The notes under the pieces are model-generated. The model worked only from the letters and a program-made list of their open reading frames with translations. It did no database searches and was not told the origin of the DNA. Made by a program: the position numbers and the translations under genes. Shown here piece by piece: positions 20,667-56,084 of a DNA stretch of 64,000 bases (positions within the stretch are counted from its first letter, which is position 1; the number at the start of each line of letters is the position of its first letter). Source of the stretch: an uncultured archaeon. Its GTDB lineage: Archaea > Aenigmatarchaeota > Aenigmatarchaeia > CG10238-14. The stretch lies in the NCBI GenBank assembly GCA_964372465.1, contig CAYJRA010000001.1:21845-85844 (forward strand), given 5' to 3'.

Positions 20667-20671
20667 TTTTA

Positions 20672-24252: not shown

Positions 24253-24319
24253 ATTCGCTACCACTCTTATATTTCATTCTATAATTAATAGTAAAGAAAA
24301 GGTTCTAAAGGGTGGTGTT

Positions 24320-25369: not shown

Positions 25370-25373
25370 TAAC

Positions 25374-25913
25374 TTGGCTGAATTGAAATATCCAAAAAAT
25401 GAAATAAAATATTATTGGTCTTTTTTTAGTAAATGTAAAGTGGTTTTAGATGTTGGGTGTGGCAGCGGATGGTTTACAAAGTTTAAAGACAAAGCTATCG
25501 GTATGGATATAAATACAAAAGAATTTATTCGCGGTGATGTTAGAAGACTTCCATTTAAAAATTCTAGTTTTAATGGCGTATTTGCCTCGCATATAATAGA
25601 GCACACAAAAGACCCAAGTATATGTATCAAAGAATTTAAAAGAGTTTTAACAAAAAATGGAATCTTACTAATAAGGATACCTCAAGGAAAATACATGTAT
25701 CCGGAATCAGACCCTACGCACAAATTTATATTTACAAAAAATTTTTTGGAAGAAATGATAACGAAAAAAGGCTTTATAATACTTAAAATATGGCAAAGAC
25801 ATCAATTTAGAGGCATGTATAAGATATTCTCAAGGTTTGCCTTGCCTGTTGCCTTTTTATTAGGGAAGTTTTTGAAACCAACAGAGATATTATTATTGGC
25901 AAAATCTGATTAA
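25374..25913 (+). CDS. Class I SAM-dependent methyltransferase
   Basis: VLDVGCGSGWF; LPFKNSSFNGVFASHIIEH. TTG start; there is no in-frame ATG before motif I. Confidence 0.7.
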   Translation: MAELKYPKNEIKYYWSFFSKCKVVLDVGCGSGWFTKFKDKAIGMDINTKEFIRGDVRRLPFKNSSFNGVFASHIIEHTKDPSICIKEFKRVLTKNGILLIRIPQGKYMYPESDPTHKFIFTKNFLEEMITKKGFIILKIWQRHQFRGMYKIFSRFALPVAFLLGKFLKPTEILLLAKSD

Positions 25914-25914
25914 A

Positions 25915-29885: not shown

Positions 29886-29894
29886 TTTTAATCA

Positions 29895-30587
29895 TCATAA
29901 CATATTAAATTTAACTTTAAGGAGAACAATCATATTATTTATGGCATCCTTCCAGTTTATTTTTTTACCTTCTTCTTTTGTTCTAGCTGAGTAGTTTATA
30001 GGCAACTCATATATATCATAACCATGTTTTATTATCTTTGCCGTGATTTCTGCCTCTATTTCGAATCTATCACTAAAAAGTTCTATATTTTTCAATACAT
30101 TTCTATGTATACACTTATAACAAGTTTCCATATCAGTTAAATTTGTATTAAATAAAAAATTGGTTAAAAATGTTAAAATCTTATTTCCTAACAATTGAAA
30201 AAATTTCATATTTTTATATTTTCCAATAAACCTACTCCCAAAAACAACTTTTTTTTTCCTATCAATAATAGGTTTTATTAAATATAAGATCTGTTTGGGG
30301 TTATATTCAAGATCTGCATCTTGTATAACTACTATATCACCATCTGATTTTTCTATTCCTTTTCTTATGGCGTACCCTTTACCTTTGTTTTTTTCATATG
30401 ATATAATTTTTAAGTTTTTAATTCTCTTTTTAAGTTTTTTTAATTCTTGGTATGTTTTATCAGACGATCCATCATTAACTATTATAATATCATTTTTTAT
30501 ACCATAATCATGAGAAGCTACTTGATCAATAATATTAGAAATAGTTTTTTCTTCATTATAGACTGGTACTATAATAGATAGCTTCAT
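29895..30587 (-). CDS. GT2 polyprenyl/dolichyl-phosphate sugar synthase (Dpm1-like)
   Basis: LSIIVPVYNEEKTI, IVNDGSSDKT, VIQDADLEYNP, and a soluble 230-aa size typical of Dpm1/GtrB-type enzymes. Confidence 0.75.
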   Translation of the reverse strand: MKLSIIVPVYNEEKTISNIIDQVASHDYGIKNDIIIVNDGSSDKTYQELKKLKKRIKNLKIISYEKNKGKGYAIRKGIEKSDGDIVVIQDADLEYNPKQILYLIKPIIDRKKKVVFGSRFIGKYKNMKFFQLLGNKILTFLTNFLFNTNLTDMETCYKCIHRNVLKNIELFSDRFEIEAEITAKIIKHGYDIYELPINYSARTKEEGKKINWKDAINNMIVLLKVKFNML

Positions 30588-30627
30588 TAAGAGGTATTTA
30601 AAAATTTAAGCTTTTAAAGTCAATAAC

Positions 30628-32202
30628 ATGAAGAAAATAAACAAAGAATTGGTCATATTATCAATAATAATTATTGGTTTAATTTTCAGACTTTTCATCT
30701 CTTGGCAAAAAATAGAAACTCTGTTACAAAAAATTCTAATAGATGATGCTTTTATAGCGTTCTCTATATCCAGAAATATTGCTAATGGTAATGGAATATC
30801 TTTTGACGGAATTTCGTTAACTAATGGTTTTCAACCATTGTGGATATTCATTATAGTTTCTATATTTAAAATAATTAAAAATGAATTAGCTATAAATTTA
30901 GTTTTAACAATAGCATCAATAATAGATACTATAACAATATTTCTTATATATAGAATCGGAGAAAAAATTTACGGAGAAAAAATTGGATTACTAAGTTCAA
31001 TGGTTTATTCTATCAATCCATTATTTTTATTTTTTACATTAAACGGTATAGAGGTGGCTTTAACTGTTTTCTTAATAAATATAACTATTCTATATTTTAT
31101 TTCTATCAAAAATTTTACAAATAAAAAAATAATATTTTTAGGTTTATTGTTGGGCATAACGGTATTATCAAGGTTAGATTCCATTTTTTTAGTTTTTAGT
31201 ATTTGTGTCATATTACTTTGGAAAGTTAAAAAAATCGATTTAATAATAAAAAATTTTTTTATTTTGGGTATTACAATTTTTTTGATAGCATCTCCCTGGT
31301 TAATGTGGAACTATATAAATTTTGGAACGTTCATTCCTAGTAGTGGAAAAGCTGTATATAATTTAGGCCACATGATCTGTGACATAAAACACTGCAACAT
31401 TTATGATATAACAAAAATATTATTTAGAAATTTTTTAACTGGTATTTTTTCTTTAACTTATTATTTTGGGATAATTAATTCAAACATAATAAATATAATT
31501 TTCGGTCTCATAATTCTATACTTTTTATTCATAGGTATTAAAAAATATAATATATTTTTATCTGTATCCTTTATTTATATCTGCTTAATATTTTTATTTT
31601 ATTCGGCATATATTTGGAGATTGGATCTTAGATATTTTACTGCATCTTCATCTCTCTTATTAATTACTTTATGTAATGGAATATTCACTTTTGCTAAAAA
31701 GATAAAATACAAATTTTTTATTCTGTCATTTATACTTAGTATCTTATTAACTAACATTTTGATAAATGCTAATTACGAATGGAACAGGGGTTACGTTCCA
31801 TGGCAGATAATGATGTATGAAGGGGGTTTATGGGTAAAAAATAATACAAAAACGAATATAATCATTGCTTCGTTCAATAGCGGACTGATTGGATATTATT
31901 CAGAAAGATCTAATATTAATTTGGATGGAGTAATAAATTTTGAGGCAATTCAGGCAATTGAAAAAAATAATATTACAAATTACATAAAATCAAAAAATGT
32001 TTCCTATTTATTAGATACTGTATTGGATATAAGAAATGAAAATGAAGACATAGATTTATGGAATATCAACCCATGGACAAAATACATGGGTGAAGAATTC
32101 AAAAGTAGTTTAGAAATTCAAAAAATTAATATTAAAGAATTTGAAATCGTTGGTAGAAATAAAATGAAAACTGCATTTTTCATAGCAAAAGTAATCAATT
32201 AA
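30628..32202 (+). CDS. GT-C-like polytopic membrane protein
   Basis: First-loop motif LIDDAFIAFSISRNIANGNGISF..TNGFQPLW. About 12 TM helices and a C-terminal soluble domain. Confidence 0.4.
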   Translation: MKKINKELVILSIIIIGLIFRLFISWQKIETLLQKILIDDAFIAFSISRNIANGNGISFDGISLTNGFQPLWIFIIVSIFKIIKNELAINLVLTIASIIDTITIFLIYRIGEKIYGEKIGLLSSMVYSINPLFLFFTLNGIEVALTVFLINITILYFISIKNFTNKKIIFLGLLLGITVLSRLDSIFLVFSICVILLWKVKKIDLIIKNFFILGITIFLIASPWLMWNYINFGTFIPSSGKAVYNLGHMICDIKHCNIYDITKILFRNFLTGIFSLTYYFGIINSNIINIIFGLIILYFLFIGIKKYNIFLSVSFIYICLIFLFYSAYIWRLDLRYFTASSSLLLITLCNGIFTFAKKIKYKFFILSFILSILLTNILINANYEWNRGYVPWQIMMYEGGLWVKNNTKTNIIIASFNSGLIGYYSERSNINLDGVINFEAIQAIEKNNITNYIKSKNVSYLLDTVLDIRNENEDIDLWNINPWTKYMGEEFKSSLEIQKINIKEFEIVGRNKMKTAFFIAKVIN

Positions 32203-32233
32203 TATTTTAACATTTTCATTATACAAGAAGAAT

Positions 32234-33532
32234 ATGAAAAAAATTGGTATAATAGGATCTGGTGCCGCAGGACTAGCATCTGCTCTAAAATTAAAAGAAA
32301 ATGGTTTTGATGTTACTATATTCGAAAGAGAAAGTTTTATTGGTGGTCTCGCATCAAGATATAAGATAAACTGGGATAAAAAAACATATTATATTAATAA
32401 AACATATCATCATATTCTTGAGGGAGATTTAACAACAGTAAAAATGATTAATTATCTTGGAATAAAACACAAATTTCATAGAACAAAAGTCAAAACTGGT
32501 TTTGTTTACAAAAATAAAATTTGGGGTTTATCATCACCTGTAGATATGTTAAAATTCCCAGTAAATTTGATAGATAAAATAAAATTACTCGCTTTCATAA
32601 TAAATTGCTCATTAAAAGAAGACTGGTCTGATACCGAAAAGATAAACGCCGAGGATTGGATAATAAGAAGAGTAGGAAAAAATAATTATAAAATAATTTT
32701 TGAAAAATTAATAAAAAACAAATTTAATAAACAACCAAAAAAAATTTCTGCAGCATGGTTTGGAACAAGATTCGTTAGAGAATCACAATCTTTTATGAAA
32801 CGTTTTGGGTGGCTTGAAGATGGTGGAGAAGGACAAATATTAGATTTAATGATAAAAAAATTAAAAAATACTAATTGCAAAATTAAAATAAATGTCGATG
32901 TAAGAAACATAGACGTAAAAAATAAAACAATAACTTTTTATGAAAAAGGTGTAACAAAAAAAGAGAAATTTGATGTTATAATAAGTACCATTCCACCGGA
33001 AATATACATGAAATTAGCAACAATGAATAATCATTCAAAAAGATTAAGAAAATCATTCAAAAAAATAGAGTATCTAAGTGTTATTTGTGCTTGTATAGGA
33101 TTAAAGAAAAAATATACAAATTTTTATTGGTTAAATATTTTAGATAATTATCCATTCAAAGTAATATTTACAAATAGTGTTTTACATAAAGATTCGGCGC
33201 CAAAAAATAAAAGTAATATTTATCTAGCAACATATTTCAGTGGAAAAAATTATTTATGGTATAAGAATGAAAAAGAAATATTTGAAATATATATCAAATA
33301 TTTAGATAAAATATTTAAGAAGTGTAAAAAAAATATTGATTGGTATAAAATAGTTAAATTCAAACATGCTGAAGCTATCTTTGATATAAACTTCAAAAAT
33401 CCACCCATATCAGACAATGGAATATATTTCGCGGGTATTTTTAGAATATTTCCAAAAATAAGAAACGTTTCATCTGCTTTAGAATCCGGTTTTGAAGCAG
33501 CTGAAGCTGTTATGAGTGATGAGAATGAGTAA
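32234..33532 (+). CDS. FAD/NAD(P)-binding oxidoreductase (amine-oxidase / UDP-galactopyranose-mutase-like fold)
   Basis: Dinucleotide-binding motif KIGIIGSGAAGLASALKLKENGFDVTIFERESFIGG. 432 aa. Confidence 0.55.
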   Translation: MKKIGIIGSGAAGLASALKLKENGFDVTIFERESFIGGLASRYKINWDKKTYYINKTYHHILEGDLTTVKMINYLGIKHKFHRTKVKTGFVYKNKIWGLSSPVDMLKFPVNLIDKIKLLAFIINCSLKEDWSDTEKINAEDWIIRRVGKNNYKIIFEKLIKNKFNKQPKKISAAWFGTRFVRESQSFMKRFGWLEDGGEGQILDLMIKKLKNTNCKIKINVDVRNIDVKNKTITFYEKGVTKKEKFDVIISTIPPEIYMKLATMNNHSKRLRKSFKKIEYLSVICACIGLKKKYTNFYWLNILDNYPFKVIFTNSVLHKDSAPKNKSNIYLATYFSGKNYLWYKNEKEIFEIYIKYLDKIFKKCKKNIDWYKIVKFKHAEAIFDINFKNPPISDNGIYFAGIFRIFPKIRNVSSALESGFEAAEAVMSDENE

Positions 33533-34598
33533 AGTCGCATTTGTAAAGGTAAAGAAAGGGAAGGTTTGCGTACAAGATGCAGTTAGAAAGGCAATGAAAC
33601 TAACTGAATGGAAAAAATATATAAATGGAAATAAATTTTTCTTAAAAATAAATGGTATTTCAGATCAACTTGTTCCGGGTCAATGCACATCGCCGTGGGT
33701 GGTTGAAAGTGTAATACAAAAAATTAAAGAAGGGTTCCCAAAGGCAAAAATAAAAATTGGTGATGCGGACCTAGCAGCGGCAAAACAATTAAACAAAGCG
33801 GCAAAACTATGGGGTATAATTGATATAGCTGAAAAATATGGAATAGAATTTGTTAATATATCAGATGAAGAAGCAACCATGCAACAAATAAATGGAAAAA
33901 TACTAAAAGAAATGCTTGTTTCTAAATCAGTTCTTGAAGCTGATACAATAATAAATATACCTATCGCAAAATCACATTGCCTTACAAAATTAACATGTTG
34001 CTTAAAAAATCATTGGGGATTAATACCAAGGGGTGTTAGACACAACTATCATCTGTTAGTAAATCAAGTAATTGCAGATATAAACAATTATTTCAAAAAA
34101 ACAACTTACAATGTAGTAGATGGAACCGTAACAATGGAGGGTGATGCGCCAAGAACCGGAACTCCAAAAATAACAAATGTCATATTTGCTGGTAGTGATA
34201 GAGTGGCAATAGATACTGTAGTAGCAAAATTTATGGGGCTGGAACATAAAAAAATTGACCATATTATATTATCAGAAAAAATGAATGTCGGGTCTACAAA
34301 ATATGAAATAATTGGTGATAAATTTTATATCGATAAATTTGCAAAGCCAAAACCGAATAGGCAGCCAATATTTTTGCTAGAAATGAATTTTAGAAAAGTT
34401 CCTATATTAAGAGACATCATGTTTAAGACAAAACTTTTTGATATATTAGCATGGGGTGCAACGCAATATAATTCTATAATATGGTATAACCTAAAAGGTA
34501 AAAAAATGGCTGAAAAAATTATATATAAAACTCAATATAGAAAAGAATTCGAAAATCTTTGGGAGAAAACAGGCAAAACTGGAAAACTACCTGCCTAA
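33525..34598 (+). CDS. DUF362-domain protein
   Basis: Start taken at MSKVAFVKV. FLKINGIS...TSPWVVESVI and NIPIAKSHCLT..HWGLIP resemble DUF362 from memory. Overlaps the FAD-enzyme gene by 8 nt. Confidence 0.5.
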   Translation: MSKVAFVKVKKGKVCVQDAVRKAMKLTEWKKYINGNKFFLKINGISDQLVPGQCTSPWVVESVIQKIKEGFPKAKIKIGDADLAAAKQLNKAAKLWGIIDIAEKYGIEFVNISDEEATMQQINGKILKEMLVSKSVLEADTIINIPIAKSHCLTKLTCCLKNHWGLIPRGVRHNYHLLVNQVIADINNYFKKTTYNVVDGTVTMEGDAPRTGTPKITNVIFAGSDRVAIDTVVAKFMGLEHKKIDHIILSEKMNVGSTKYEIIGDKFYIDKFAKPKPNRQPIFLLEMNFRKVPILRDIMFKTKLFDILAWGATQYNSIIWYNLKGKKMAEKIIYKTQYRKEFENLWEKTGKTGKLPA

Positions 34599-40876: not shown

Positions 40877-40899
40877 ACCCCCTTATTTCCTGTGGAAAA
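40877..40899 (+). promoter_or_regulatory. Origin recognition box (ORB) copy a
   Basis: ACCCCCTTATTTCCTGTGGAAAA: a C-string plus a perfect dyad TTTCC-TGT-GGAAA. The 14-mer ACCCCCTTATTTCC is identical to the two ORBs at the origin. Confidence 0.6.
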
Positions 40900-40968: not shown

Positions 40969-43677
40969 TCACACCGGATTATAAAATTCCGATCTTTTTT
41001 CACCATCATAAAATAGTAACTGACTGCTACATAGATTGCATTTTATAGAAAGTGGAACTCTTCTAAAAACAGTATTACACCCTTTACAGATGACGCCATC
41101 AATACTCGTTAGAAACTTTTCATACCCATTCTCACTATTCGGTTCATTTTTAATAATATCAAAAAGACCCATTTGTTTGCCTATACCCATTAATTCTGAC
41201 TTGTTCACATTTAGTGACTCGAAAACTCTTTCTAGAGGGGGTAGTAATTGGCTCTCTATGTAATATTTGGAATCCACTTTTATACCAAGATTTTTGGCAT
41301 ATTCCGGGTCTTCAGCCCTTTTTGAAATCATACCGGTACCCTGAACTATAACAAACCCCACTCTATCACCAATACCAGGTGCTGTGATAATGTTCCTTTT
41401 TCTCATTTTTTTTACTAGTTCTACATGAGGTTGAACTCCTTTATATGTTTTAAGTGATTTGGAAATGCTTTTTGTTATTACAAGTTTGTTAATATCCATT
41501 TTACCTGTTTTTATTTGATCTATTTTGTCCCTTACTAATTTTAATGCTTTGCTTGTATTTTGCTCTTTCAAAATAGTGTTTAGAACTTCTTGGAGGATTT
41601 CTGAAACTAAGCTACACCAGTCTCTTCTAACTGTTTCTATTCCCTTCGTCACTATTGATTCGTCATATCCTGATGCTAATGGCTCAAAATTCCAGCCCGC
41701 ATATCTTTTTTTATTTAAAATAAGTAGTGTCTTAAAAACGCTCTCGATTTTTATTTTTAAAACACCTCCCAGCTCTTTATTAACAATTTGCGATAATTCC
41801 TCTCCTATTTTAAACGCTTTATCAACTTCTGTTGTCTTTGTTTTAACCATAACAGAATCCGTGTCTGCATAGATTACTGTGTATTCTTTTGATGTTTCTA
41901 TTATTAATTTTGTTTTACCTATCATATCCCTACCAACACCTGTTATGGTGTTTGCTATATCAATAACATATAATCTTGCCCGTATGTAACCAGAATATCC
42001 GTAAAAGGCATTAGCAATTGTCTTAAAAGCGTATTGTTTTGCGTAAAGATATCTTCTTTTATCTTCCGATTTTGCATTCTTCATTTCAACTTTTAGTTTA
42101 TCTCTCGTAGAGATCAAATATTCTAATATTTCTGGTATAATTCCTTTTCTGACTTTCTCTGTAACAAAAGACGTTCCGTGACTCGTAACGTTTTTCTCTA
42201 TGTCATTATCCTCAAGTAGTAAGGTTGTTGGACAAATATTAAGAGACATCATGATACTGGGGTACATGGATTTAAAGTCTAAATAAACAACACATTTGTC
42301 ATGAAAACCTATCATTGGCTTTAAAACAAACCCACCTTTAAGGCCACCTTTTCTTCTTTCTTCGTTTCTTTTATATAATTCATTGCTCTCAGGCCTACAT
42401 GGTAGGACAAAATTTCTTTTATTAAACTCTTTCAATAACAAATTTTCTATTCTTGCAGCTTCGCCGCCGTCTAATACGTCTTGCAGCAACAGACCTGATA
42501 CCTTCGACATTTCAAAAAATTTATCCAACATGTTTTTTTCAAAAATTATTCTTAACGGCAGTTCAGCATCCTTCCTGCTATAATCTATGAGTTTTTCAAA
42601 TTTTTCGCCATTGTCAGCCCAAAATTTAGATATTTCGCTATGGGCGACATCTACTTTAGATTCGCCTAAAATTAGTTTTGAAACGTCCCCCAAGCCAAAT
42701 CTCTTTAGTTCACGGTAAAGACCAAATTTTGCTGTAGCCTCTTTAATAAGATCATAGACATCAACAACTACTCTGCCTGGTATAACAGCCTTCTGCTTAT
42801 TTGCAAATTTGTCAAGTCTTATTGGTTTTTGTGCACATCTACCTAAGTTTCTATTAACATTGTTTTTTGCAAGTCTAGTATCTATAAAAGGTAAATCAAA
42901 ATTAGTACTGTTATAACCTAGAATTATATCTGGATCAAAATTATCAATAATTCTTAAAAATTCTTCCAACATTTCTTTTTCTGAATCGAATGATAATGTA
43001 TTGTCATATTTTTTAGTTCTTTTAGCTATCAGCACTAAACTGCTTTTTTCCTTGTATGTTGGATAGAATACCAAGCTTATTAATATTATTTGATCTTTTT
43101 CTGGATCAGGCAAGCCGCCGTCGGATGAAACAGTTTCAATATCTATACTTAAGTATTTCAGTAAGCTGTTTTCTTCTATGTTTAAATCACTGAAAGAGGT
43201 TGCTTGAATTTTTTTTTCTGTTTTTACAACACCTGTTTTTACGTTTTCTCCTGTGGCTCTATACCATCTCATACCGTGTATGTTAAGATCTGTCATAAAT
43301 CTATACTTAAACAATATATCTGCTTCGAATATTTCTTTGACATTCACGTTTAGTTTTAAATCATCACGTATATTTGGAACGACAGCCGGGTTGGTTAATG
43401 TCACTTTTAGCATGTTTAATGGTTTGCTCTTAAATCCGATGGCAGGAAATTTTTCTTCATTCTCTATTTTAAGAATAATTCCTTTGTATTTTTTTATCAG
43501 ATAATCTTTGATTTCTTCTTCTTTTCCAGAATTCGTTAAAATAAAAAAATATGGTAAAAAATTCTCAAAAAAAACTGTTATTGATGAATTATCTTTTGTC
43601 CTACCAAAAAGTCTTACAGTAGGTTTAGAATTAGTCAAAATATAATCTGCATCCAAAATCTGAAAATCTAATTCCAT
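40969..43677 (-). CDS. polB: Family-B DNA polymerase (PolB) with C-terminal zinc-ribbon extension
   Basis: Exo I SIDIET, Exo II YNSTNFDLPF, Exo III YSRKDAELPL, Pol A DFKSMYPSIM, Pol B KTIANAFYGY, Pol C YADTDS. After the usual C-terminus (YYIESQLLPPLERV...GLFDIIKN) come ~58 extra residues containing CKGC-x12-CNLC. Confidence 0.95.
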   Translation of the reverse strand: MELDFQILDADYILTNSKPTVRLFGRTKDNSSITVFFENFLPYFFILTNSGKEEEIKDYLIKKYKGIILKIENEEKFPAIGFKSKPLNMLKVTLTNPAVVPNIRDDLKLNVNVKEIFEADILFKYRFMTDLNIHGMRWYRATGENVKTGVVKTEKKIQATSFSDLNIEENSLLKYLSIDIETVSSDGGLPDPEKDQIILISLVFYPTYKEKSSLVLIAKRTKKYDNTLSFDSEKEMLEEFLRIIDNFDPDIILGYNSTNFDLPFIDTRLAKNNVNRNLGRCAQKPIRLDKFANKQKAVIPGRVVVDVYDLIKEATAKFGLYRELKRFGLGDVSKLILGESKVDVAHSEISKFWADNGEKFEKLIDYSRKDAELPLRIIFEKNMLDKFFEMSKVSGLLLQDVLDGGEAARIENLLLKEFNKRNFVLPCRPESNELYKRNEERRKGGLKGGFVLKPMIGFHDKCVVYLDFKSMYPSIMMSLNICPTTLLLEDNDIEKNVTSHGTSFVTEKVRKGIIPEILEYLISTRDKLKVEMKNAKSEDKRRYLYAKQYAFKTIANAFYGYSGYIRARLYVIDIANTITGVGRDMIGKTKLIIETSKEYTVIYADTDSVMVKTKTTEVDKAFKIGEELSQIVNKELGGVLKIKIESVFKTLLILNKKRYAGWNFEPLASGYDESIVTKGIETVRRDWCSLVSEILQEVLNTILKEQNTSKALKLVRDKIDQIKTGKMDINKLVITKSISKSLKTYKGVQPHVELVKKMRKRNIITAPGIGDRVGFVIVQGTGMISKRAEDPEYAKNLGIKVDSKYYIESQLLPPLERVFESLNVNKSELMGIGKQMGLFDIIKNEPNSENGYEKFLTSIDGVICKGCNTVFRRVPLSIKCNLCSSQLLFYDGEKRSEFYNPV

Positions 43678-43707
43678 AATATTAATATGATAGCATGTTA
43701 TTTAGGT

Positions 43708-44760
43708 TTATTCTATCTTAATAACTTCTCTTGTTTTTAGGTTTAGTGAGTATATTTTATAATCTCCAACGGATATTATACTGGTCCCTTTGTAGTTCTT
43801 ACAAATTGCGGGCTCTATATTTGTAACTACCATGTCAGGTATTTCTTCCAAGACAAAATCAGTTTTTGCCGTATTAAAAATTTTTTCGTTCTTTGGAATG
43901 ATATATCTTTTTTTTAAAAAAATTTCTATATCAAAGGAAGAAACTGTTATTTGATGTCTTTCATAAAAAATTTTAGGTAAAAAAAGTGTTTTCACTGTGT
44001 TAATCTCTATTAACCTTGGTTGATTAATTTCTGTTTTTACAAGTTTCTCTGTTTCTTTTTTCATATCTAACAATAAAGAGTTCGTATCAAAAGAAAAGTA
44101 GAGATTAGTTTTTACGTCTCCTATCAGTTCTAAGTTAACAAAATTATCCGGTAGTAATAATATATTTATATCATTTTTTGATCTGTTTATTTTTCTATCC
44201 AATTCGATATCGGGATAATAAATGTGTTCTAAATTAAATTTAGAATTCATGCGTCTGCATTTAAAACCCGCTGCATCATCCAATTCAATGTCATCCATCT
44301 TCTCTTTTAGTTTGAGATCAAAATGTATTTCCAACTCCCCTGTCGTATCTTCAACAACCATTTGATTTTGGAGCTTGTCTCTTACAATGCCTATTATACA
44401 AAATTCCGTTGTTTTAGGAGTTATTTTGTTAATTGAGACTAACTTCTCTAAATTGTTGTTTTTCTGAATTAACTTGCTTAATTTTTCATATTTTATTGCA
44501 TAACTGTTAGCAAAATCGTTTATATTGAGCTCCTTTTTTTCATATGAATAAATCCTCATATCGTTTATATCAATTCTTTCCTCTGTTCTATTTTTAATTT
44601 TCTTTATATGATCCTGAGTCACTATAAATGGTCGTGGATTCAGCTTATTTATTTCATTAATAATAAACTGTGGTTCTGATATTACTAATGGCAACACGTC
44701 TTTTGATATTTGAAAACCGTTATCCAGAAATAATTTTACTGCTTCTCGTTCATCCATCAT
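43708..44760 (-). CDS. PolD small-subunit (DP1)-like protein with degraded phosphodiesterase motifs
   Basis: N-terminal EAVKLFLDNGFQISKDVLPLV. OB fold FCIIGIVRDKLQNQMVVEDTTGELEIHF...LDDAAGFKCRR...YYPDIELDRK, which parallels Pyrococcus DP1 (TIIGLVNSK..FEVEDKTGIVKVFL...LPDAVVAFKG...YLPDVPLYRK). The expected SDIHVG reads PDNFVN, GDVVDG reads GDVKTN, there is no GNHD, and GHVH reads TNIE within conserved VLEEIPDMVV context. Confidence 0.7.
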   Translation of the reverse strand: MMDEREAVKLFLDNGFQISKDVLPLVISEPQFIINEINKLNPRPFIVTQDHIKKIKNRTEERIDINDMRIYSYEKKELNINDFANSYAIKYEKLSKLIQKNNNLEKLVSINKITPKTTEFCIIGIVRDKLQNQMVVEDTTGELEIHFDLKLKEKMDDIELDDAAGFKCRRMNSKFNLEHIYYPDIELDRKINRSKNDINILLLPDNFVNLELIGDVKTNLYFSFDTNSLLLDMKKETEKLVKTEINQPRLIEINTVKTLFLPKIFYERHQITVSSFDIEIFLKKRYIIPKNEKIFNTAKTDFVLEEIPDMVVTNIEPAICKNYKGTSIISVGDYKIYSLNLKTREVIKIE

Positions 44761-45965
44761 ATCACTAAATCCTGATTTAATATGTCTTTTATCCTCTCTT
44801 TTACTGTTTGTGATAAACTGAGTTTTATTTCACGTGTTCTGCCATATCTCCCTAAAGAAACTATTTTTGCATTGATTATACCAGTCATGTCCAACTCAGA
44901 AATTAAATCAGAAATTCTTCTTTGAGTTAATGGATATAAACCTGCTTCTTTACATTTGTTCTCGTAAATTCCATAAATATCACCTGTTTGTATATCCTCT
45001 CTTTTTTGGTCAACCAATTGAATTGTAGACCATAAAACAATTTTTGTTTGTTTTGGTAATGATTTTACAGACTCTATTATCCTGTCATAATCTATTTTAT
45101 CCTGAGCAAAATCAACGTGTTTTTCTGTTATTTTTGACTCGTTGCCTCTCTCAACAATTTCACCAGCTACTCTAAGTAGATCTAATGCTCTTCTAGCATC
45201 ACCGTGCTCTTGAGCTGCAAGCGCGGCACACTTGGGTATAACTTCTTCTGATAATACATTTGGATGAAATCCTATTTCAGCTCTATGCTTAAGTATGTCC
45301 TGTAATTCCAAAGCATTATAAGGTGGGAACAGCAATTCTTCCTCGCTTAGAGAGCTTTTTACACGCGGATCTAATATGTCTATAAAATGAAGGTCATTCG
45401 TTATTCCTATTATAGCCATTTTAGCCTTTTTCAGTTCTTGGTTTACTCTAGTAAAATTGTAAAGAAAACTATCACCCATCTTTTCAACAAGGTTGTCTAC
45501 TTCATCCAGAATAACTATTACTACCCAGTCTTTTGAGTCAATAATATTAAAAAATGTTTGGTAAACGGTTTCCGTGGGAAGACCTGTAGCAGGAACTTCT
45601 TCTCCTAACAATCTGATTAACTCGGCAATTAACCTGTATTCTGTATCAGCAACCTTCTTCATCTTACAGTTAATATAAAGCATCTTAACAAGATTTATGC
45701 CTTGGTGCGACATTTTTTCAAGTTCGTCACCAACATATCTAGCACAAAGGGTTTTTCCCGTGCCAGTGAGGCCATAAATAAAAATGTTGGATGGTCTACC
45801 GCCTTTTAGAGATGGGGCTAAAATAGATGCAAGTGTATTTATTTGCTCATTTCTATGGGGAATTGTTTCGGGGGTAAAATGAGATGTTAACGCGTCTCTA
45901 TTATTGAATAAGGGCACTGATTTTGTTATAAATTCTTGAAAAATTGTTTGGATATTACGAGGCAT
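44757..45965 (-). CDS. cdc6: Orc1/Cdc6 replication initiator
   Basis: Walker A GLTGTGKT, Walker B VIVILDEVD, sensor and winged-helix C-terminus (YPLTQRRISDLISELDMTGII). 4-nt overlap with the DP1-like gene. Confidence 0.95.
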   Translation of the reverse strand: MPRNIQTIFQEFITKSVPLFNNRDALTSHFTPETIPHRNEQINTLASILAPSLKGGRPSNIFIYGLTGTGKTLCARYVGDELEKMSHQGINLVKMLYINCKMKKVADTEYRLIAELIRLLGEEVPATGLPTETVYQTFFNIIDSKDWVVIVILDEVDNLVEKMGDSFLYNFTRVNQELKKAKMAIIGITNDLHFIDILDPRVKSSLSEEELLFPPYNALELQDILKHRAEIGFHPNVLSEEVIPKCAALAAQEHGDARRALDLLRVAGEIVERGNESKITEKHVDFAQDKIDYDRIIESVKSLPKQTKIVLWSTIQLVDQKREDIQTGDIYGIYENKCKEAGLYPLTQRRISDLISELDMTGIINAKIVSLGRYGRTREIKLSLSQTVKERIKDILNQDLVI

Positions 45966-46025
45966 AATACTTATTTTTCCTGATGAAATAAAGCTTTTTC
46001 TATTGGAAAATATATAATCCCTCCC

Positions 46026-46048
46026 ACCCCCTTATTTCCATTGTAAAC
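46026..46048 (+). promoter_or_regulatory. ORB copy b
   Basis: ACCCCCTTATTTCCATTGTAAAC. The 14-mer is identical to ORB a, with an imperfect dyad. Confidence 0.7.
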
Positions 46049-46305
46049 ATATAATTAACATATTTACAATTATAACAGTATTATAATTAATTTAATAGTT
46101 CGGAAAGTAAACAAAAATTGACCTTATAAATTAAGTTGAAAGAGACCTTTACGACCCAAAATATGTGATTTTAATGAAAATAAAGGTTTTAGACCCAAAA
46201 AAACAATTTTACATTAGTTTTATAAAAGTCTTGAAAGTAGTTTTTTTTGAATTCCGTAAACAGCAATTGGAAATGTAGTCAAAAACCAACTAAACACATT
46301 GTTAC

Positions 46306-46328
46306 TCTTTCATAGGAAATAAGGGGGT
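46306..46328 (-). promoter_or_regulatory. ORB copy c (inverted)
   Basis: The reverse complement reads ACCCCCTTATTTCCTATGAAAGA. It is inverted relative to ORB b across the AT-rich segment. Confidence 0.7.
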
Positions 46329-46332
46329 GACA

Positions 46333-47019
46333 TTATTTTTCTGTTAGATTAAACACATTACCTTCTGCTATATTATCTTTTATAGAAATTAACCCAAAAT
46401 AGCCTTCTGATATTCTACCCGGGTTCAGTAGTAACGTACTTCCTATACGGTCTACTCCTCTGGCTTCATGAATATGAGCAGAAACAGATGCCAGCGGTCT
46501 TTTCATTTCAATAAAATCCCTTATTACTTTTGATCCAACATGTGCGCCTGCGGATACCATATCTAATCTAGTATTTAACGGGGGCATATGAGTTAATTGT
46601 ATTTTTTTTGCCACGTTCTTGACATCATTCCACCCTCTTTCTAAATTATTTTTTAATTCTTCCTCTGTTGGTTCTATATTCGTATTAAAAGGTGTTTTTG
46701 CTCCACCATAGCCATAAAACCCCACATCCTTTAAAACAACACCCTTGCCGTGTATGCTTATATTTTCCCTTGTTATTATATCCACAACCTTTAACGTATC
46801 ATTGTTTCCGGGCACACAAAAAATAGGCTTCTTAAGCAATTTTAATTCCTCTATTATTAATGATGCTATCTCTTCTTGAGTGAATCCCTTAGGTGTGGTT
46901 ACGTCTGTAAAGTCCCCCGTATATAAAACGGCATCAAAATTAAACCTTTTTAATTTTTCTAAAAAAATTAACATGTTTTCTATATCGTTATGATTATCTC
47001 CTATTGCTATAATATTCAT
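46333..47019 (-). CDS. Calcineurin-like metallophosphoesterase (Icc-related, stand-alone)
   Basis: Motifs IAIGDNHND (DxH), YTGDFTD (GDxxD), VPGNNDT (GNxD), THMPP, SAHIHE (GHxH-type). Confidence 0.75.
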   Translation of the reverse strand: MNIIAIGDNHNDIENMLIFLEKLKRFNFDAVLYTGDFTDVTTPKGFTQEEIASLIIEELKLLKKPIFCVPGNNDTLKVVDIITRENISIHGKGVVLKDVGFYGYGGAKTPFNTNIEPTEEELKNNLERGWNDVKNVAKKIQLTHMPPLNTRLDMVSAGAHVGSKVIRDFIEMKRPLASVSAHIHEARGVDRIGSTLLLNPGRISEGYFGLISIKDNIAEGNVFNLTEK

Positions 47020-47026
47020 ACAATCA

Positions 47027-47329
47027 CTATAACCTTTCTATTACAAATTCCTTTTTCTTTCCGAATTTAAGCCATATTTCAACTGGTATTTTGTGTTCTT
47101 CTCCGAGTTTCTTTATCAAATCTAACTGATCCTTTTCTCTTGGATTTGGGTAATATTTGTTTTTTTTAGTTCCTTTAATCTCAACAATTTTTTCTATTCT
47201 ATCTTCATTGGGTTTTAGTACAATAAAATCAGATGACTGCCCTATGCTCATTTTTATAACATTTTGTCTTCCATATTTTTTACTCAATTCCTTTTTTGCT
47301 AAATATTCTGAATAATATCCTTTCCTCAT
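47027..47329 (-). CDS. hjc: Holliday junction resolvase Hjc-like (short)
   Basis: MRKGYYSEYLAKKELSKKYG..SSDFIVLK..IVEIKGTKKNKYY...IPVEIWLKF parallels Hjc (KG..E......L...G ... D ... IEVK.TKK ... V.VKF), with the E-D-E-K catalytic pattern preserved. Only 100 aa. Confidence 0.55.
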   Translation of the reverse strand: MRKGYYSEYLAKKELSKKYGRQNVIKMSIGQSSDFIVLKPNEDRIEKIVEIKGTKKNKYYPNPREKDQLDLIKKLGEEHKIPVEIWLKFGKKKEFVIERL

Positions 47330-48804: not shown

Positions 48805-49235
48805 GATTCACGAGCGAAGTTGAAAAACTTTTACATAAAATAAATGAATATTCAATAATAGTTGAAGGCAAAAAGGACAGAACAGCTTTGAATAGTTTAG
48901 GATTAAATAATATAATTGATATATCTAGTAAAGATTTAGAGACATTTGTTGATAGTTTATCTATAAATAACGAATATATAATATTAACAGACTTTGATAA
49001 CGAGGGAGAAGACAAAAAACAAAAGATTTATAAATTTTTTGATAGAACTAAAATAAGGTTCAATCATAACTTAAGACTAAAATTTCAGAACGTCTTCAAG
49101 GTGGTTAAAATAGAAGAAATTAATAAAAAATTAGTTTTAATGGAGGATGATTTTAATGGCAAAATTAGCCCAATCAACGATAAAATATTTGATAGAAGCA
49201 GATTTCTCTGCAAACGGAGTAGTAGAAAAACCTGA
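48798..49235 (+). CDS. Small Toprim-domain protein (COG1658-type, RNase M5/primase-like)
   Basis: IIVEGKKDRTALNSLG and IILTDFDNEGE (Toprim E and DxD). Its 3' end overlaps dnaG by ~80 nt. Confidence 0.6.
   Translation: MLRFTSEVEKLLHKINEYSIIVEGKKDRTALNSLGLNNIIDISSKDLETFVDSLSINNEYIILTDFDNEGEDKKQKIYKFFDRTKIRFNHNLRLKFQNVFKVVKIEEINKKLVLMEDDFNGKISPINDKIFDRSRFLCKRSSRKT
49142..49146 (+). promoter_or_regulatory. Shine-Dalgarno GGAGG for dnaG
   Basis: GGAGG lies 9 nt upstream of the ATG at 49156. It abuts the ATG at 49147, which favours 49156 as the start. Confidence 0.45.
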
Positions 49236-50313
49236 TGTAATAGGAGCTATTTTCGGTCAGACAGAAGGATTACTTGGCCAAGATTTAGATCTTAGAGAGT
49301 TACAAAGAACAGGAAGGATAGGTAGAATAGAAGTAAATTTAACTGAAGAGAAAGGAGTTACTTCAGGTTTAATATTAATACCATCTAGTTTGGATTCATC
49401 TGAGACCGCACTTATAGCTGCAGCTATAGAAACTATAGAGAGAATTGGTCCATGTGAATCTTCTATTAAACTGAAATCAATCAAAGATATACGAATGGTT
49501 AAAAGAGATTATATGGTAGATAGGGCAAAAGAGATTCTACAAAAGTTATTAGAAGAAATACCTGAAACAGGTCATTTAACAGAGACAGTTAAGGAATCCG
49601 TCAGAGTATCTGAGATAGTGAAATACAATGGTCTCGAATGCGGGCCAGATGCCCAAAATTCAAATAGTATAATTGTTGTTGAAGGGAGGGCGGATGTTAT
49701 TAATTTATTAAAAAACGGTATTAAAAATACAGTAGCCGTTGGTGGCACAACAATATCAAAAGAACTGGTTGGATTCTGTCATAATAAAACGATCACAGTG
49801 TTTTTAGATGGTGACAGAGGTGGAGATCTTATATTAAAAGAGCTTAGACAGATAATTCCAATAAAATATGTTGTTCGTGCACCAGAGGGAAAGGAAGTAG
49901 AAGAATTGTCAAAAAAAGAAATTTTTAAAACTTTGAGAACAATCGTTCCAATCGATCAAGTTACAAAATATAAAAAACGTGAAGAATTAGATGAAAAGAA
50001 GAGTGAAGATCTGGATAAAAAAACCAAAGAAAAAATATTAAGTATATTAGATAAAATGGTAGGAACGAAAGCCGTTTATATATTCGATGAAAAAATGAAA
50101 ATAGTGGGTAAAATACCATTAAACAGATTTAATGAAAAAAACAAAGATATTGAAAATGCAAAAATAGTTTTGGTTGACTCTTCTATTGATAAAAACATGG
50201 TAAAAATTGCGGATTATTGCAATGTTGATTATTTGATAGGAGACAACCTCGAGGACAATGATATAAAGCCAAAGAAGGTTAAAGTTTATACGAAAACAGA
50301 TTTAAGTATCTAA
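49156..50313 (+). CDS. dnaG: Archaeal DnaG (Toprim primase-like, exosome-associated)
   Basis: TIKYLIEADFSANGVVEKPDVIGAIFGQTEGLLGQDLDLRELQRTGRIGRIEV is the hallmark archaeal DnaG N-terminus. Toprim motifs IIVVEGRADV and FLDGDRGGD. Confidence 0.9.
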   Translation: MAKLAQSTIKYLIEADFSANGVVEKPDVIGAIFGQTEGLLGQDLDLRELQRTGRIGRIEVNLTEEKGVTSGLILIPSSLDSSETALIAAAIETIERIGPCESSIKLKSIKDIRMVKRDYMVDRAKEILQKLLEEIPETGHLTETVKESVRVSEIVKYNGLECGPDAQNSNSIIVVEGRADVINLLKNGIKNTVAVGGTTISKELVGFCHNKTITVFLDGDRGGDLILKELRQIIPIKYVVRAPEGKEVEELSKKEIFKTLRTIVPIDQVTKYKKREELDEKKSEDLDKKTKEKILSILDKMVGTKAVYIFDEKMKIVGKIPLNRFNEKNKDIENAKIVLVDSSIDKNMVKIADYCNVDYLIGDNLEDNDIKPKKVKVYTKTDLSI

Positions 50314-51191: not shown

Positions 51192-51274
51192 AACCCATAT
51201 TATAACTTATATATTCACGATATCTTTAAATTTTCCTTTTTATATCTAGTTTGAATGAATAGTCAGTGAATTTC

Positions 51275-52339
51275 ATGTTGATGAACTACGAATATTACAA
51301 TAAGCTTGGTTGGAATAAAAACCCATTTACTATGTCCGTACTGCCTGATTTAATGGTTGGTTATGTTTCACAAATAGACTTATTGCTTTCACACATAATG
51401 AATCAGCATAAAGTGGCATTAATTATTGGGCCAACCGGTTCTGGAAAAACCACCCTTTTAAATTGGCTGCTAAAAACAATGCAAAACAAAAATATTTTTT
51501 TGCATTATATTCCAAAATCGCCATCAAAAAAAGAAGATTTAATAGACCTATTCAAATTTATTTTCAACTATTCCCTCATTGATAATTTTATATATCATAA
51601 TTTGAACATTTTAAATATACAGAAATTTTTATCTAACAGAACATCTAAAAAAAATGTTGTTCTATTGATAGATGAGTCCCACGAATCCTCAACAGAGGTT
51701 TTAGAATGGTTTAGAACATTATGTGATATAACACCAAACCTTACTTTAGTATTTGCAGGTTTGCCATCACTGGAAAGAAAACTAGAAGACGAGTTACCAA
51801 CCCTTCTCACAAGAGTAAGCACGCGTGTGTATATGGAGCCATTAAACGTTCCAGAAACAGAATCCCTAATTAGAAAAAGAATAGAAAGCGTTGGTGGCAA
51901 AGATTTAGGCCCATTCACATCAGATTCAATCAATAAAATCCATAGCATAACTGGTGGTTTCCCACGTGAAATAATTAGGATTTGTGACGAAATGATACAG
52001 GAAAGCGTGAAAAGAAATATTAGTAGTATAACAGTTCAGTTTATCGAGGAAAAATACAACAAGCAAGACATACCAACTCAAATCGAACAAAAAATACTGT
52101 TGACACCAAGACAGAGACAAATAATTGAACTCTTGAACAAACAGCCAAACTTATCACCAACAAAAATAGTAAACACAATTGGTATAGACGGTTATAAGAC
52201 TAAAAATCATGCAATACGTTCAATCAATAACATATTAAAACGCCTAATGGATGACGATATAGTAAACCGAAAAGAACTTGGAAACAGCTATCTTTATTTC
52301 CTTTCTGGGAAAGGCAAAGCTCTGTTAACAGAGGCTTAA
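51275..52339 (+). CDS. AAA ATPase (ExeA/ORC-like) with C-terminal winged helix
   Basis: Start taken at the ATG at 51275. NPFT...LIIGPTGSGKTTLL (Walker A), VLLIDESHE (Walker B), VFAGLPSLERKL, and C-terminal RQRQIIELLNKQPNLSPTKIV...GNSYLYFLSGKG (wHTH-like). Confidence 0.55.
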   Translation: MLMNYEYYNKLGWNKNPFTMSVLPDLMVGYVSQIDLLLSHIMNQHKVALIIGPTGSGKTTLLNWLLKTMQNKNIFLHYIPKSPSKKEDLIDLFKFIFNYSLIDNFIYHNLNILNIQKFLSNRTSKKNVVLLIDESHESSTEVLEWFRTLCDITPNLTLVFAGLPSLERKLEDELPTLLTRVSTRVYMEPLNVPETESLIRKRIESVGGKDLGPFTSDSINKIHSITGGFPREIIRICDEMIQESVKRNISSITVQFIEEKYNKQDIPTQIEQKILLTPRQRQIIELLNKQPNLSPTKIVNTIGIDGYKTKNHAIRSINNILKRLMDDDIVNRKELGNSYLYFLSGKGKALLTEA

Positions 52340-53933: not shown

Positions 53934-56084
53934 GTGGATAATGATTTAATTATAAAAAAAACAATGGAATCTTTTAATATAAGAAACCTTAACCCAGTCC
54001 AAGAAATGGCGATAAAGAGCGGTTTACTAGATAAAAAAAGTTTAATAATATCTTCCCCCACAGCTAGTGGAAAAACGTTATGTGCTGCATTGATTGGAAT
54101 GAAACTTTTCTATGAAAATAAAAAAATGCTTTACCTCTGTCCTCTTGTTGCTTTAGCTCAAGAAAAATATCAAGAATTCAAAGAAAAATTTTCTAAATTT
54201 GGATTAAAAATATCAATTTCCATAGGTAATTTAGATTCTAACGATCCATTTTTAAAAAATTATGATTGGATCATTGCCAGCAACGAAAAAATAGATAGTT
54301 TAATAAGACACGGTGCAGAATGGATAAAGGATGTTGGCGCCATAGTAGTTGATGAGATTCATTTATTGACAGATCCTTCACGCGGGCCTACACTTGAAAT
54401 TCTTTTAACCAGGCTTAAAGAAACGATTCCCAATGCTACTATTTTAGGCTTAAGCGCGACAATAAAGAACGTCAAAGAATTAGCTGAATGGTTTAAAGCT
54501 TCACCCGTTGTTACTGATTGGAGACCAGTAAAATTATATGAAGGTATATGCTATAATTCCAATATTAATTTTTTGAATTGGAAAAGTTATGAACTTGATC
54601 ACAATTTTTCGCTTGAAGAATCTATAATTAAAAACACTCTTGATTTAAAGAAGCAATGCATTTTTTTCACTGCCACTAAAAAGAATGCTGAATCACTAGC
54701 AGAAAAATTAACAAAGACATGTTCTATTTTTTTAACAGACGAAGAAAAGCAAAATTTAGAAAAAATTTCCGATCAGATTTTAAATTTTTTAGATACACCA
54801 ACAAAACAATGTCAACGTTTAACGAAATGCTTAAGATACGGCGTTGCATTCCATCATGCGGGTTTGCTGGGAAAACAAAAAACAATTATAGAGAATGAAT
54901 TTCGAAAAGGTAACATTAAAGTTATTGCTGCCACACCAACATTGGCAATGGGTATAAATTTACCGTCATTTAGGATTATAATAAGGGATACCAAAAGATA
55001 TTATTCCGGTTATGGTTCAATGTATATTCCTGTTATGGATTATAAACAAATGTGTGGCCGAGCTGGCAGACCGCAATATAATGAACACGGTGAAGCTATA
55101 CTGATAGCTAAATCCAGTTTTGAATCCCAAGAATTTTTGGATAGGTATATATTAGCCGAGTCCGAAGAAATACAATCAAAACTAGCATTAGAACCAGTTT
55201 TAAGAACACAAACTTTAGCTCTTATTGCTTCAGATTTTGTTAATACACGAAAATCACTTTTTGAGTTTTTTCAGAAAACTTTTTATTCACACCAATTTGG
55301 TGATATATCACTGTTGGAAAAAAATTTAATTAGAATAATTGAAACATTGAAAGATTTTGGTTTTTTAGTTGAAAATGAAGATAAACTATCTGCAACCAAA
55401 ATAGGTAAAAGAATATCTGAACTATACATAGATCCATTAACAGGACATCACTTCATTAAGTGTTTAGTAAGATCCAATAATATGAAATCAATACCATTTA
55501 GTTATTTGCATATGATAGCCAATACCCTTGAAATAAAACCATTATTTTCTGTCAATAGCAGGGACTTTGAAGAATTAGAAAAATCAGTTTTACAAAAACA
55601 AAGTTTTTTGACAGAAACGCCAGAGGAATGGGATGATGAATATGAAGACTTTATTAAAACAGTAAAATTTGCTATAATTCTTAATAATTGGATAAATGAA
55701 ATGCATGAGGATGTTATGTTAGAAAAATATAATATCACACCAGGTGAGCTAAGAACAAAACTCATGAATGTAGATTGGCTTTTATACTCAGTTCATGAAT
55801 TAGCATTACTTTTAGGATATAAAGATACACTAAAAGATTTGAAAAAACTAAGAGTTAGAATAAAGTATGGTGTCAAAGAGGAACTGTTGCCTTTAGTTAG
55901 ATTAGAAGACATTGGTAGAATAAGGGCAAGAAAGCTTTGGTCTAACAACCTAAAAAGTTTAGAAGACTTAAGAAAAATCTCCTTAGATGTTTTGCAAAAA
56001 ATTATCGGGAAAAATATTGCTTTAGAGATAAAAAAGCAACTAGGTGAAAAGAAGGACGTTAACGAAACACTCGTTAATTTTTAA
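53934..56084 (+). CDS. hel308: Hel308/Hjm (Ski2-like) DNA helicase
   Basis: Motif I SPTASGKT, II VVDEIH, III SAT, VI QMCGRAGRP, plus winged-helix, ratchet and HhH C-terminal domains. GTG start in the track; an alternative ATG lies at 53964. Confidence 0.9.
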   Translation: MDNDLIIKKTMESFNIRNLNPVQEMAIKSGLLDKKSLIISSPTASGKTLCAALIGMKLFYENKKMLYLCPLVALAQEKYQEFKEKFSKFGLKISISIGNLDSNDPFLKNYDWIIASNEKIDSLIRHGAEWIKDVGAIVVDEIHLLTDPSRGPTLEILLTRLKETIPNATILGLSATIKNVKELAEWFKASPVVTDWRPVKLYEGICYNSNINFLNWKSYELDHNFSLEESIIKNTLDLKKQCIFFTATKKNAESLAEKLTKTCSIFLTDEEKQNLEKISDQILNFLDTPTKQCQRLTKCLRYGVAFHHAGLLGKQKTIIENEFRKGNIKVIAATPTLAMGINLPSFRIIIRDTKRYYSGYGSMYIPVMDYKQMCGRAGRPQYNEHGEAILIAKSSFESQEFLDRYILAESEEIQSKLALEPVLRTQTLALIASDFVNTRKSLFEFFQKTFYSHQFGDISLLEKNLIRIIETLKDFGFLVENEDKLSATKIGKRISELYIDPLTGHHFIKCLVRSNNMKSIPFSYLHMIANTLEIKPLFSVNSRDFEELEKSVLQKQSFLTETPEEWDDEYEDFIKTVKFAIILNNWINEMHEDVMLEKYNITPGELRTKLMNVDWLLYSVHELALLLGYKDTLKDLKKLRVRIKYGVKEELLPLVRLEDIGRIRARKLWSNNLKSLEDLRKISLDVLQKIIGKNIALEIKKQLGEKKDVNETLVNF

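Follow-up and report, generated by a model that had tools for sequence, protein, structure and literature searches.

An origin-proximal operon of an Aenigmarchaeota genome encodes a family-B DNA polymerase with a DP2-like zinc ribbon next to an inactivated DP1-like protein

The window analyzed here spans 64 kb and belongs to a contig, at least 157 kb long, of an Aenigmarchaeota (DPANN) genome. The G+C content of the window is ∼30%, and the closest named relatives of its proteins are encoded in metagenome-assembled genomes of Candidatus Aenigmarchaeota/Aenigmatarchaeota (DPANN). The subject of this study is an operon of this window in which the initiator gene orc1/cdc6 is followed by a gene for a homologue of DP1, the small subunit of DNA polymerase D (PolD), and by polB, the gene for a family-B DNA polymerase (PolB). 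An earlier note on this DNA had described three codirectional genes directly downstream of the origin, and this was borne out: all three open reading frames (ORFs) are on the minus strand with the claimed coordinates, and an origin-like region lies upstream of them. The genes and the two parts of the PolB C terminus are listed here by position in the window (aa, amino acids; AF2, AlphaFold2; pLDDT, predicted local distance difference test).

44757-45965, minus strand: orc1/cdc6 initiator gene, 402 aa; NCBIfam NF001625, E value of 2.7e-157, above the cut-off
43708-44760, minus strand: gene for the inactive DP1-like B-subunit, 350 aa
40969-43677, minus strand: family-B DNA polymerase gene polB, 902 aa
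41131-41211, minus strand: PolB linker, aa 823-849; AF2 pLDDT of 40-49 over fragment residues 1-27; length variable in the alignment
40972-41130, minus strand: zinc ribbon, PolB aa 850-902; C864-x2-C867-x12-C880-x2-C883, with an FRRVPL loop

The initiator was also matched by the Pfam families Cdc6_lid and Cdc6_C. Both spacings claimed before were seen in the ORF coordinates: cdc6 and the DP1-like ORF overlap by 4 nucleotides (nt) (ATGA), and 30 nt separate the DP1-like ORF from polB. If the second Met of the DP1-like protein is its true start, as in the closest relative (locus L004), the overlap is 1 nt.

All exonuclease and polymerase motifs of PolB could be read intact in the translation (ExoI DIE, ExoII NSTNFD, ExoIII YSRKD, motif A DFKSMYPS, motif B KTIANAFYG, and motif C YADTDS), as the earlier note had stated, and the Pfam domains were strong (PF00136, E value of 1e-113; PF03104, E value of 8.5e-36). 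The best sequence match of PolB in the PDB was the catalytic subunit of human Pol delta (E value of 1.2e-101), marginally above PolB of Thermococcales, which appears to fit the published placement of B6 PolBs beside the Delta-like clade. Residue 821 is the last one of the Pfam polymerase domain, which leaves a tail of 81 residues. The cysteine motif described there before (CKGC-x12-CNLC) was found as C864/C867/C880/C883, the extension being ∼80 aa long and not ∼58 aa. In a comparison set of 118 near-full-length PolB homologues, those with a name being from Aenigmarchaeota, the four cysteines of the ribbon were invariant, and R873, P875, L876, G878, and F889 were conserved in at least 91%.

A profile built from 30 such tails matched the Zn-III element of DP2, the large subunit of PolD, in Thermococcus kodakarensis (6knb_B, residues 1129-1157; E value of 3.9e-6) and Pyrococcus abyssi (6hms_B, residues 1121-1149; E value of 1.8e-5), with an alignment that takes in the RRxP loop, and this search returned nothing else convincing. 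In the AF2 model of aa 823-902, a 27-residue linker of low confidence was followed by a beta-rich ribbon with a pLDDT of ∼90. The top three Foldseek matches of the tail were P. abyssi DP2 chains (31 columns; root mean square deviation, 0.7-0.8 Å; ∼39% identity). The earlier note had read the tail as a zinc ribbon, and such a ribbon, homologous to Zn-III of DP2, is indeed present; the helical bundle of the C-terminal domains (CTDs) of DP2 and eukaryotic polymerases is not, as the model contains no helix of four or more residues and consists of a flexible linker and the ribbon instead.

The 350-aa protein comprises an N-terminal helical domain (aa ∼1-60), an oligonucleotide/oligosaccharide-binding (OB) fold (aa ∼105-185), and a shortened remnant of the phosphodiesterase (PDE) fold without metal ligands (aa ∼195-350). 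The proposal that it follows DP1 was upheld by a family model, a profile, and a predicted structure. NCBIfam model NF003118 (PolD small subunit) matched residues 1-205, N-terminal domain included, with an E value of 4.4e-19, at a score of 68.8 bits that is below the curated family level (equivalog cut-off, 445). A Pfam scan of the protein gave no match to PF04042 (DNA_pol_E_B) or PF00149 at an E value of ≤1; subthreshold matches to STT3_PglB_C and zf-CCCH_8 were taken as spurious. The family to which the protein belongs numbers 54 protein clusters with lengths of ∼303-524 aa. A profile built from 38 members matched only DP1 chains in the PDB (6knb_A, E value of 2.8e-19; 5ihe, 6hmf, 6t8h, and 8ppt), with no eukaryotic B-subunit at an E value of ≤1. 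Two stretches were matched, one covering the OB region and the other the end of the PDE domain toward the C terminus; in the latter, PDLFQAGHVHVMQYKTYNG of DP1 was aligned with PDIV.ISNLEETIYKNYKG of the family, and GHVH of DP1 stood opposite residues that are not ligands. The AF2 model from the family alignment had a mean pLDDT of 87.5 and a predicted template modeling score of 0.79. Foldseek placed P. abyssi DP1 first among PDB structures (E values of 3.6e-17 to 1e-13; query template modeling score [TMq], 0.59-0.64), followed by human POLD2 (3.8e-13) and then POLE2, yeast Dpb2 and Pol31, and POLA2. The matches to eukaryotic B-subunits, which combine an OB fold with an inactive PDE fold as this protein does, included 6tny_B, 5vbn_A, and 4y97_G (E values of 4e-13 to 2e-8); over POLD2, POLE2, and POLA2, the values extended from 4e-13 to 4e-8. 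The comparison with DP1 and B-subunit families that had been suggested before thus recovered DP1 by sequence and POLD2, POLE2, and POLA2 by fold.

Canonical DP1 protein P0053 (524 aa, with precomputed PF04042 and PF00149 matches) served as the reference for aligning the metal-binding motifs. None of the five that characterize an active DP1 (DxH, GDxxD, GNHD, H, and GHxH) was kept: PDNF stands in the place of motif I (SDIH in P0053), the sequence at motifs II-IV is deleted or unconserved, and GHxH of motif V has become T-NIE. The PDE region is only ∼150 aa long, with large deletions between motifs I and IV relative to P0053. The earlier claim of altered metal motifs in a shortened domain therefore stands for all five, except that GDVKTN is not a relic of GDxxD; this stretch is unconserved even in the closest relatives and lies off motif II in the alignment. 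Among the 38 members, 10 columns were invariant and 21 nearly so, and the PDE remnant contains several of these (P308, D309, N322-Y-K-G325, and R285). By this pattern, the noncatalytic protein is still constrained by purifying selection.

Two longer, metagenomic members of the family, P0049 (L006, positions 881-2059, 392 aa) and P0052 (L007, positions 1115-2374, 419 aa), retain SD(I/F)H; motif II reads GD or GG in them, and motif V reads GHLH or GSFH. The gene for P0052 is directly upstream of a CTD-type PolB gene; the contig of P0049 ends too soon downstream. From their motifs, both may be intermediates in the inactivation of DP1 or partly active forms.

Gene order was compared in contigs of relatives and in one genome per GTDB species, and four window proteins were searched by tblastn against 26 loci. 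In all of the 14 species representatives of GTDB, nearly all labeled Aenigmatarchaeota, PolB came directly after the DP1-like gene (the gap in L016 is ∼650 nt). All metagenomic loci with enough downstream sequence had the same order, L011 and L012 excepted. One large subgroup, which includes the window, has the order metallophosphoesterase, origin, cdc6, DP1-like gene, and PolB. Another subgroup has no adjacent cdc6, and a conserved winged-helix-like protein of 85 aa is encoded before the DP1-like gene. The adjacency of cdc6, the DP1-like gene, and polB, for which a survey of relatives had been suggested, is conserved for the DP1-like/PolB pair and missing for cdc6 in one subgroup. Identities to the window proteins (tblastn) were as follows.

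Cdc6: 56-91% (71-91% in window-type loci)
PolB: 42-81%
metallophosphoesterase: 34-86%
DP1-like protein: 21-62%

The 85-aa protein was located at positions 616-873 of L006, 797-1054 of L007, and 5695-5952 of L009, with 52-53% identity between loci. It starts with MKRGRP, has the motifs SWNTVxKY and LPHSK, and by its sequence looks like a small winged-helix DNA binder.

The region 5' of cdc6 is 367 nt long and contains inverted arms of 22 nt (46025-46046 and 46308-46329) that are 86% complementary and 261 nt apart. Each arm bears a classical origin recognition box (ORB), consisting of a TTCCA..GGAAA dyad and then a G-string. A third ORB was found beyond the other end of the operon.

46308-46327, plus strand: distal ORB TTTCATAGGAAATAAGGGGG, 1 mismatch to the pattern TTCCAnnGGAAAnnnGGGGG; inverted partner of 46027-46046
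46047-46307, no strand: AT-rich spacer between the inverted ORBs, candidate unwinding region, 261 nt
46027-46046, minus strand: proximal ORB TTACAATGGAAATAAGGGGG, aligned with ORBs of relatives, then a mini-ORB/promoter-like stretch before cdc6
40878-40897, minus strand: third ORB TTCCACAGGAAATAAGGGGG, perfect match, 72 nt 3' of the polB stop codon

With up to 2 mismatches, TTCCAnnGGAAAnnnGGGGG matched 3 times in the window, versus 0.12 matches expected by chance. The conserved stretch TTCCAATAGAAAAGGCTTTATTTC by the proximal ORB is also present in L001 and L002, and intergenic regions of relatives have the same layout of boxes, the ACTGTTATA motif in the middle, and a mini-ORB/promoter-like stretch just before cdc6. 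Inverted ORBs around an AT-rich stretch, next to orc1/cdc6, are the arrangement of an Orc1/Cdc6-dependent origin, and it is conserved in relatives. Because of the inverted ORBs, the AT-rich spacer, and the same layout in relatives, the origin-proximal position of the operon is well supported, and the intergenic region qualifies by its sequence as a candidate origin. The GC-skew profile of the window gave no information on the initiation site. The spacer motif ACTGTTATA occurs as (A)CACTGTTATA at ∼46071-46080 of the window, ∼6656-6666 of L001, and ∼6666-6676 of L002, and is common to relatives whose DP1-like proteins are only ∼36% identical.

ORB-like boxes just 3' of polB were also present in L001, L002, and L004 (L004, 11835-11854 and 11896-11915; L002, 11920-11939 and 11978-11997; L001, 11956-11975). 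Since an ORB lies 3' of polB in the window and one or two at the same place in relatives, Orc1-type sites occur at both ends of the operon. The box 3' of polB could be a second Orc1 site, could have a role in regulation, or could mark the boundary of a former cassette.

Our interpretation is that PolB and the catalytically dead DP1-like protein form a eukaryote-like two-subunit polymerase, likely the main replicase, encoded in an origin operon in which PolB has taken the dp2 slot, and we regard this explanation as a whole as highly probable. PolB would supply polymerase activity and 3'-5' proofreading. Its C terminus would consist of a flexible linker and a C4 zinc ribbon inherited from Zn-III of DP2, and the basic RRxP loop of the ribbon would dock where the OB fold and the PDE remnant of the DP1-like protein form a groove. 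In PolD, the Zn-III loop KxRRxP (R1131 and R1132) docks in an acidic groove between the OB and PDE domains of DP1, and a Zn-III peptide of 20 residues has nanomolar affinity for DP1 (PMC6355029); the FRRVP loop retained in PolB of the window is the counterpart of KxRRxP. Owing to the loss of all nuclease metal ligands, the DP1-like protein would act only as a structural B-subunit or scaffold. Its N-terminal domain is of the DP1N type, and because this domain is retained, it most likely tethers the polymerase to GINS/CMG, as DP1 does in PolD, with Gins51 as the probable contact; DP1N is reported to bind Gins51C (PMC9023282). The DP1-like gene and polB would be transcribed together with orc1/cdc6, to which they would be coupled in translation, and the promoter would lie next to the ORB-flanked origin, at which replication would be initiated. 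PolB would occupy the DP2 position of an ancestral oriC-cdc6-dp1-dp2 operon, as expected from replacement of DP2 in situ.

On the other side of the origin lies a conserved neighbor of the operon.

46333-47019, minus strand: stand-alone metallophosphoesterase gene, 228 aa; PF00149, E value of 3e-15; PF14582, E value of 1.6e-11

The motifs of the encoded protein look intact in the translation (GDNHND, GDFTD, GNND, and SAHIHE). Wherever a locus had enough flanking sequence, the gene was found no more than ∼2.5 kb from the DP1-like gene, in three gene orders: upstream of the origin and cdc6; upstream of a winged helix-turn-helix gene that is followed by the DP1-like gene; and directly downstream of the DP1-like gene. 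In relatives it is located, e.g., at positions 5910-6593 of L001, 4117-4791 of L009, and 6959-7630 of L011. The homologue search listed only close orthologues from Aenigmarchaeota, and the nearest solved relatives, aq_1956 (2yvt) and MPPED2, are generic proteins of the Metallophos_3 type. Comparison with canonical DP1 P0053 revealed no specific similarity (BLASTP E value of 1.4). Whether the metallophosphoesterase is part of the polymerase system is uncertain; it may also be, though this is unlikely, an undescribed third partner of the PolB/B-subunit enzyme, providing, e.g., the nuclease activity that was lost with the active site of DP1.

Several observations weigh against a PolB/DP1-like heterodimer as the main replicase. 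The similarity between ribbon and DP2 has weak E values in Foldseek (0.05 and above), which is due to the shortness of a domain of only ∼30 residues. The tail is devoid of the helical bundle that contributes to the interfaces of the DP2 CTD with DP1 and of eukaryotic CTDs with B-subunits, and if the model is right, the interface would rest on the ribbon alone. In the lineage of L011 and L012, polB is not adjacent to the DP1-like gene but lies ∼5 kb away on the other strand. Furthermore, the analysis covered 64 kb of the genome, the absence of DP2 from the whole of it being taken from the literature, and the DP1-like gene is the fastest-evolving member of the cluster (21-62% identity). The last point, together with the loss of all catalytic motifs and the shortening of the domain, might also indicate that the DP1-like protein is a decaying relic of a lost PolD, and that PolB acts as a single subunit with a ribbon for contact with DNA, PCNA, or the like; in PolD, Zn-III contacts the nascent duplex as well (PMC6355029). 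However, the ORF is intact and of similar length across 54 protein clusters and 14 species, residues are invariant in the noncatalytic remnant, the fold is confidently predicted, the gene is translationally coupled to cdc6 and adjoins polB, and a yeast two-hybrid interaction has been reported for the lineage (PMC12680538). We therefore consider a relic very improbable. We assign an equally small chance to the DP1-like protein partnering with a DP2 encoded elsewhere, as a PolD without proofreading, next to an independent second polymerase, PolB. In favor of this, the window covers only 64 kb of the contig of at least 157 kb, and PolD and PolB occur together in many archaea. Within the window, DP2 was not found: no ORF is of its size, the longest having 902 aa, and the remaining large ones belong to glycosylation, recombination, helicases, and the like (RadA, an RPA-like protein, the glycosylation island described below, DnaG, Hel308, Nop56/58, and similar genes). 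Moreover, two independent surveys found this phylum to lack DP2 and to retain DP1, in most Aenigmarchaeota (PMC7544198) and in Aenigmatarchaeota (PMC12680538), the Zn-III element that docks on DP1 is on PolB itself, and the pairing of the DP1-like gene with PolB is syntenic across the phylum.

The intact-looking metal motifs of the metallophosphoesterase and its linkage to the DP1-like gene, kept through three gene orders, raise the idea of a split DP1, with the neighboring enzyme as its displaced nuclease half. This is the least credible of the alternatives, and we rejected the enzyme as a detached nuclease domain of DP1, given its insignificant similarity to P0053 and its generic solved relatives; besides, the DP1-like protein keeps a PDE-fold remnant of its own, so nothing was split off. 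Somewhat less improbable, though still unlikely, is that the operon constitutes a self-contained replication cassette embedded in the origin, with ORBs on both sides and an active metallophosphoesterase always linked. The bracket of ORBs may then stem from a replicon, once extrachromosomal or mobile, by which PolB was delivered; this fits the suggestion of Kazlauskas et al. that the B6 PolB came from a mobile element (PMC7544198). The two-subunit polymerase encoded in the dp2 slot is the reading that we retain.

Other genes of the window touch on this subject less closely. Replication and repair genes are clustered around the origin (5425-7379, 49147-50313, 51266-52339, 53934-56084, and 60453-61454) and code for RadA, an RPA-like OB protein, a DnaG-type Toprim primase, an AAA/ATPase_2 protein, a Hel308-type helicase, and a DHH/DHHA1 protein (GAN/RecJ-like). 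An ORF of 100 aa without a Pfam match (47027-47329, minus strand) is situated between the metallophosphoesterase and CBS genes; because a gene for an Hjc resolvase (PF01870, 109 aa) is found at the equivalent position in L009, it may encode a divergent Hjc-like nuclease. A glycosylation island extends over ∼7700-37700, with a G+C content of 24-29%, especially at 18000-34000, versus ∼31-33% elsewhere. It comprises at least 9 glycosyltransferases of families GT1, GT2, and GT4, STT3/AglB (15846-18050), three PMT_2 proteins, a Polysacc_synt flippase, a UDP-glucose dehydrogenase, and an epimerase, and is probably a variable cell-surface glycan locus.

The system closest to that of the window has been described from the same phylum. 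Kazlauskas et al. (2020, Nucleic Acids Research) reported PolBs of group B6-aenigma1 and a group of inactive DP1 proteins ("Aenigma_GB_GCA_002789635-like") in Aenigmarchaeota, and proposed that a CTD-bearing PolB replaced DP2, which allowed DP1 to be inactivated (PMC7544198). The window shares with that system intact PolB motifs, a single C-terminal C4 motif most similar to Zn-III of DP2, a DP1 homologue without active-site motifs, the lack of DP2, and the proposed heterodimer. Nothing essential differs; the genome is another one, and the nearest DP1-like sequence is 62% identical. A study of 2025 (Nature Ecology & Evolution) described the tail of Aenigmatarchaeota PolB as a "degenerate DP2CTD" that is shorter and has a different predicted structure, and found by AlphaFold3 and yeast two-hybrid assays that DP1 binds PolB-DP2CTD in Aenigmatarchaeota (PMC12680538). 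The heterodimer inferred in the earlier note is thus supported as correct and already published, the window being one more instance. A cdc6-DP1-PolB operon, or its placement at the origin, was found neither in the main text and supplements searched of PMC7544198 nor in PMC12680538 nor in a further literature search, and the ORB 3' of polB and the linked metallophosphoesterase were not found in the searchable text of these two papers. The operon at the origin, the ORBs at both of its ends, and the phylum-wide linked metallophosphoesterase are modest increments. In Thermococcales, the order is oriC-cdc6-dp1-dp2, and in the window, too, the origin lies upstream of cdc6 and the second gene is that of the small subunit; PolB in the position of dp2 lends direct positional support to a replacement of DP2 in situ.

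Compared with PolD, the window has kept a small subunit that has DP1's N-terminal domain, an OB domain, and a PDE fold, as well as the docking finger Zn-III with RRxP. In contrast to PolD, its catalytic subunit is of family B and not a two-barrel DP2 and lacks the helical bundle seen in the CTD of DP2, and the nuclease ligands are gone from the small subunit, in which the PDE domain is shortened. With eukaryotic Pol alpha, delta, epsilon, and zeta it has in common a family-B subunit with a Cys-rich C-terminal element and a B-subunit made of an OB domain and an inactive PDE domain; unlike the eukaryotic enzymes, PolB of the window has a single metal motif in place of the pair CysA and CysB and lacks the helical bundle, and its B-subunit, which with 350 aa is much smaller, has no PF04042 match and resembles DP1 more than any of the eukaryotic ones. 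In Baldrarchaeia (Asgard), PolB3-DP2CTD is also fused to a DP2-derived CTD, with DP2 lacking and DP1 retained (PMC12680538), but there the CTD is full length and eukaryote-like, whereas that of Aenigmatarchaeota is shorter and "degenerate" (PMC12680538), as in the model of the window protein. Among archaea, the pair of an inactivated DP1 and a PolB with a DP2-derived zinc finger is the best analogue of the eukaryotic architecture of catalytic subunit and B-subunit. As already drawn out in the literature of 2020 and 2025, this pairing bears on the origin of eukaryotic replicases from ancestors that used PolD.

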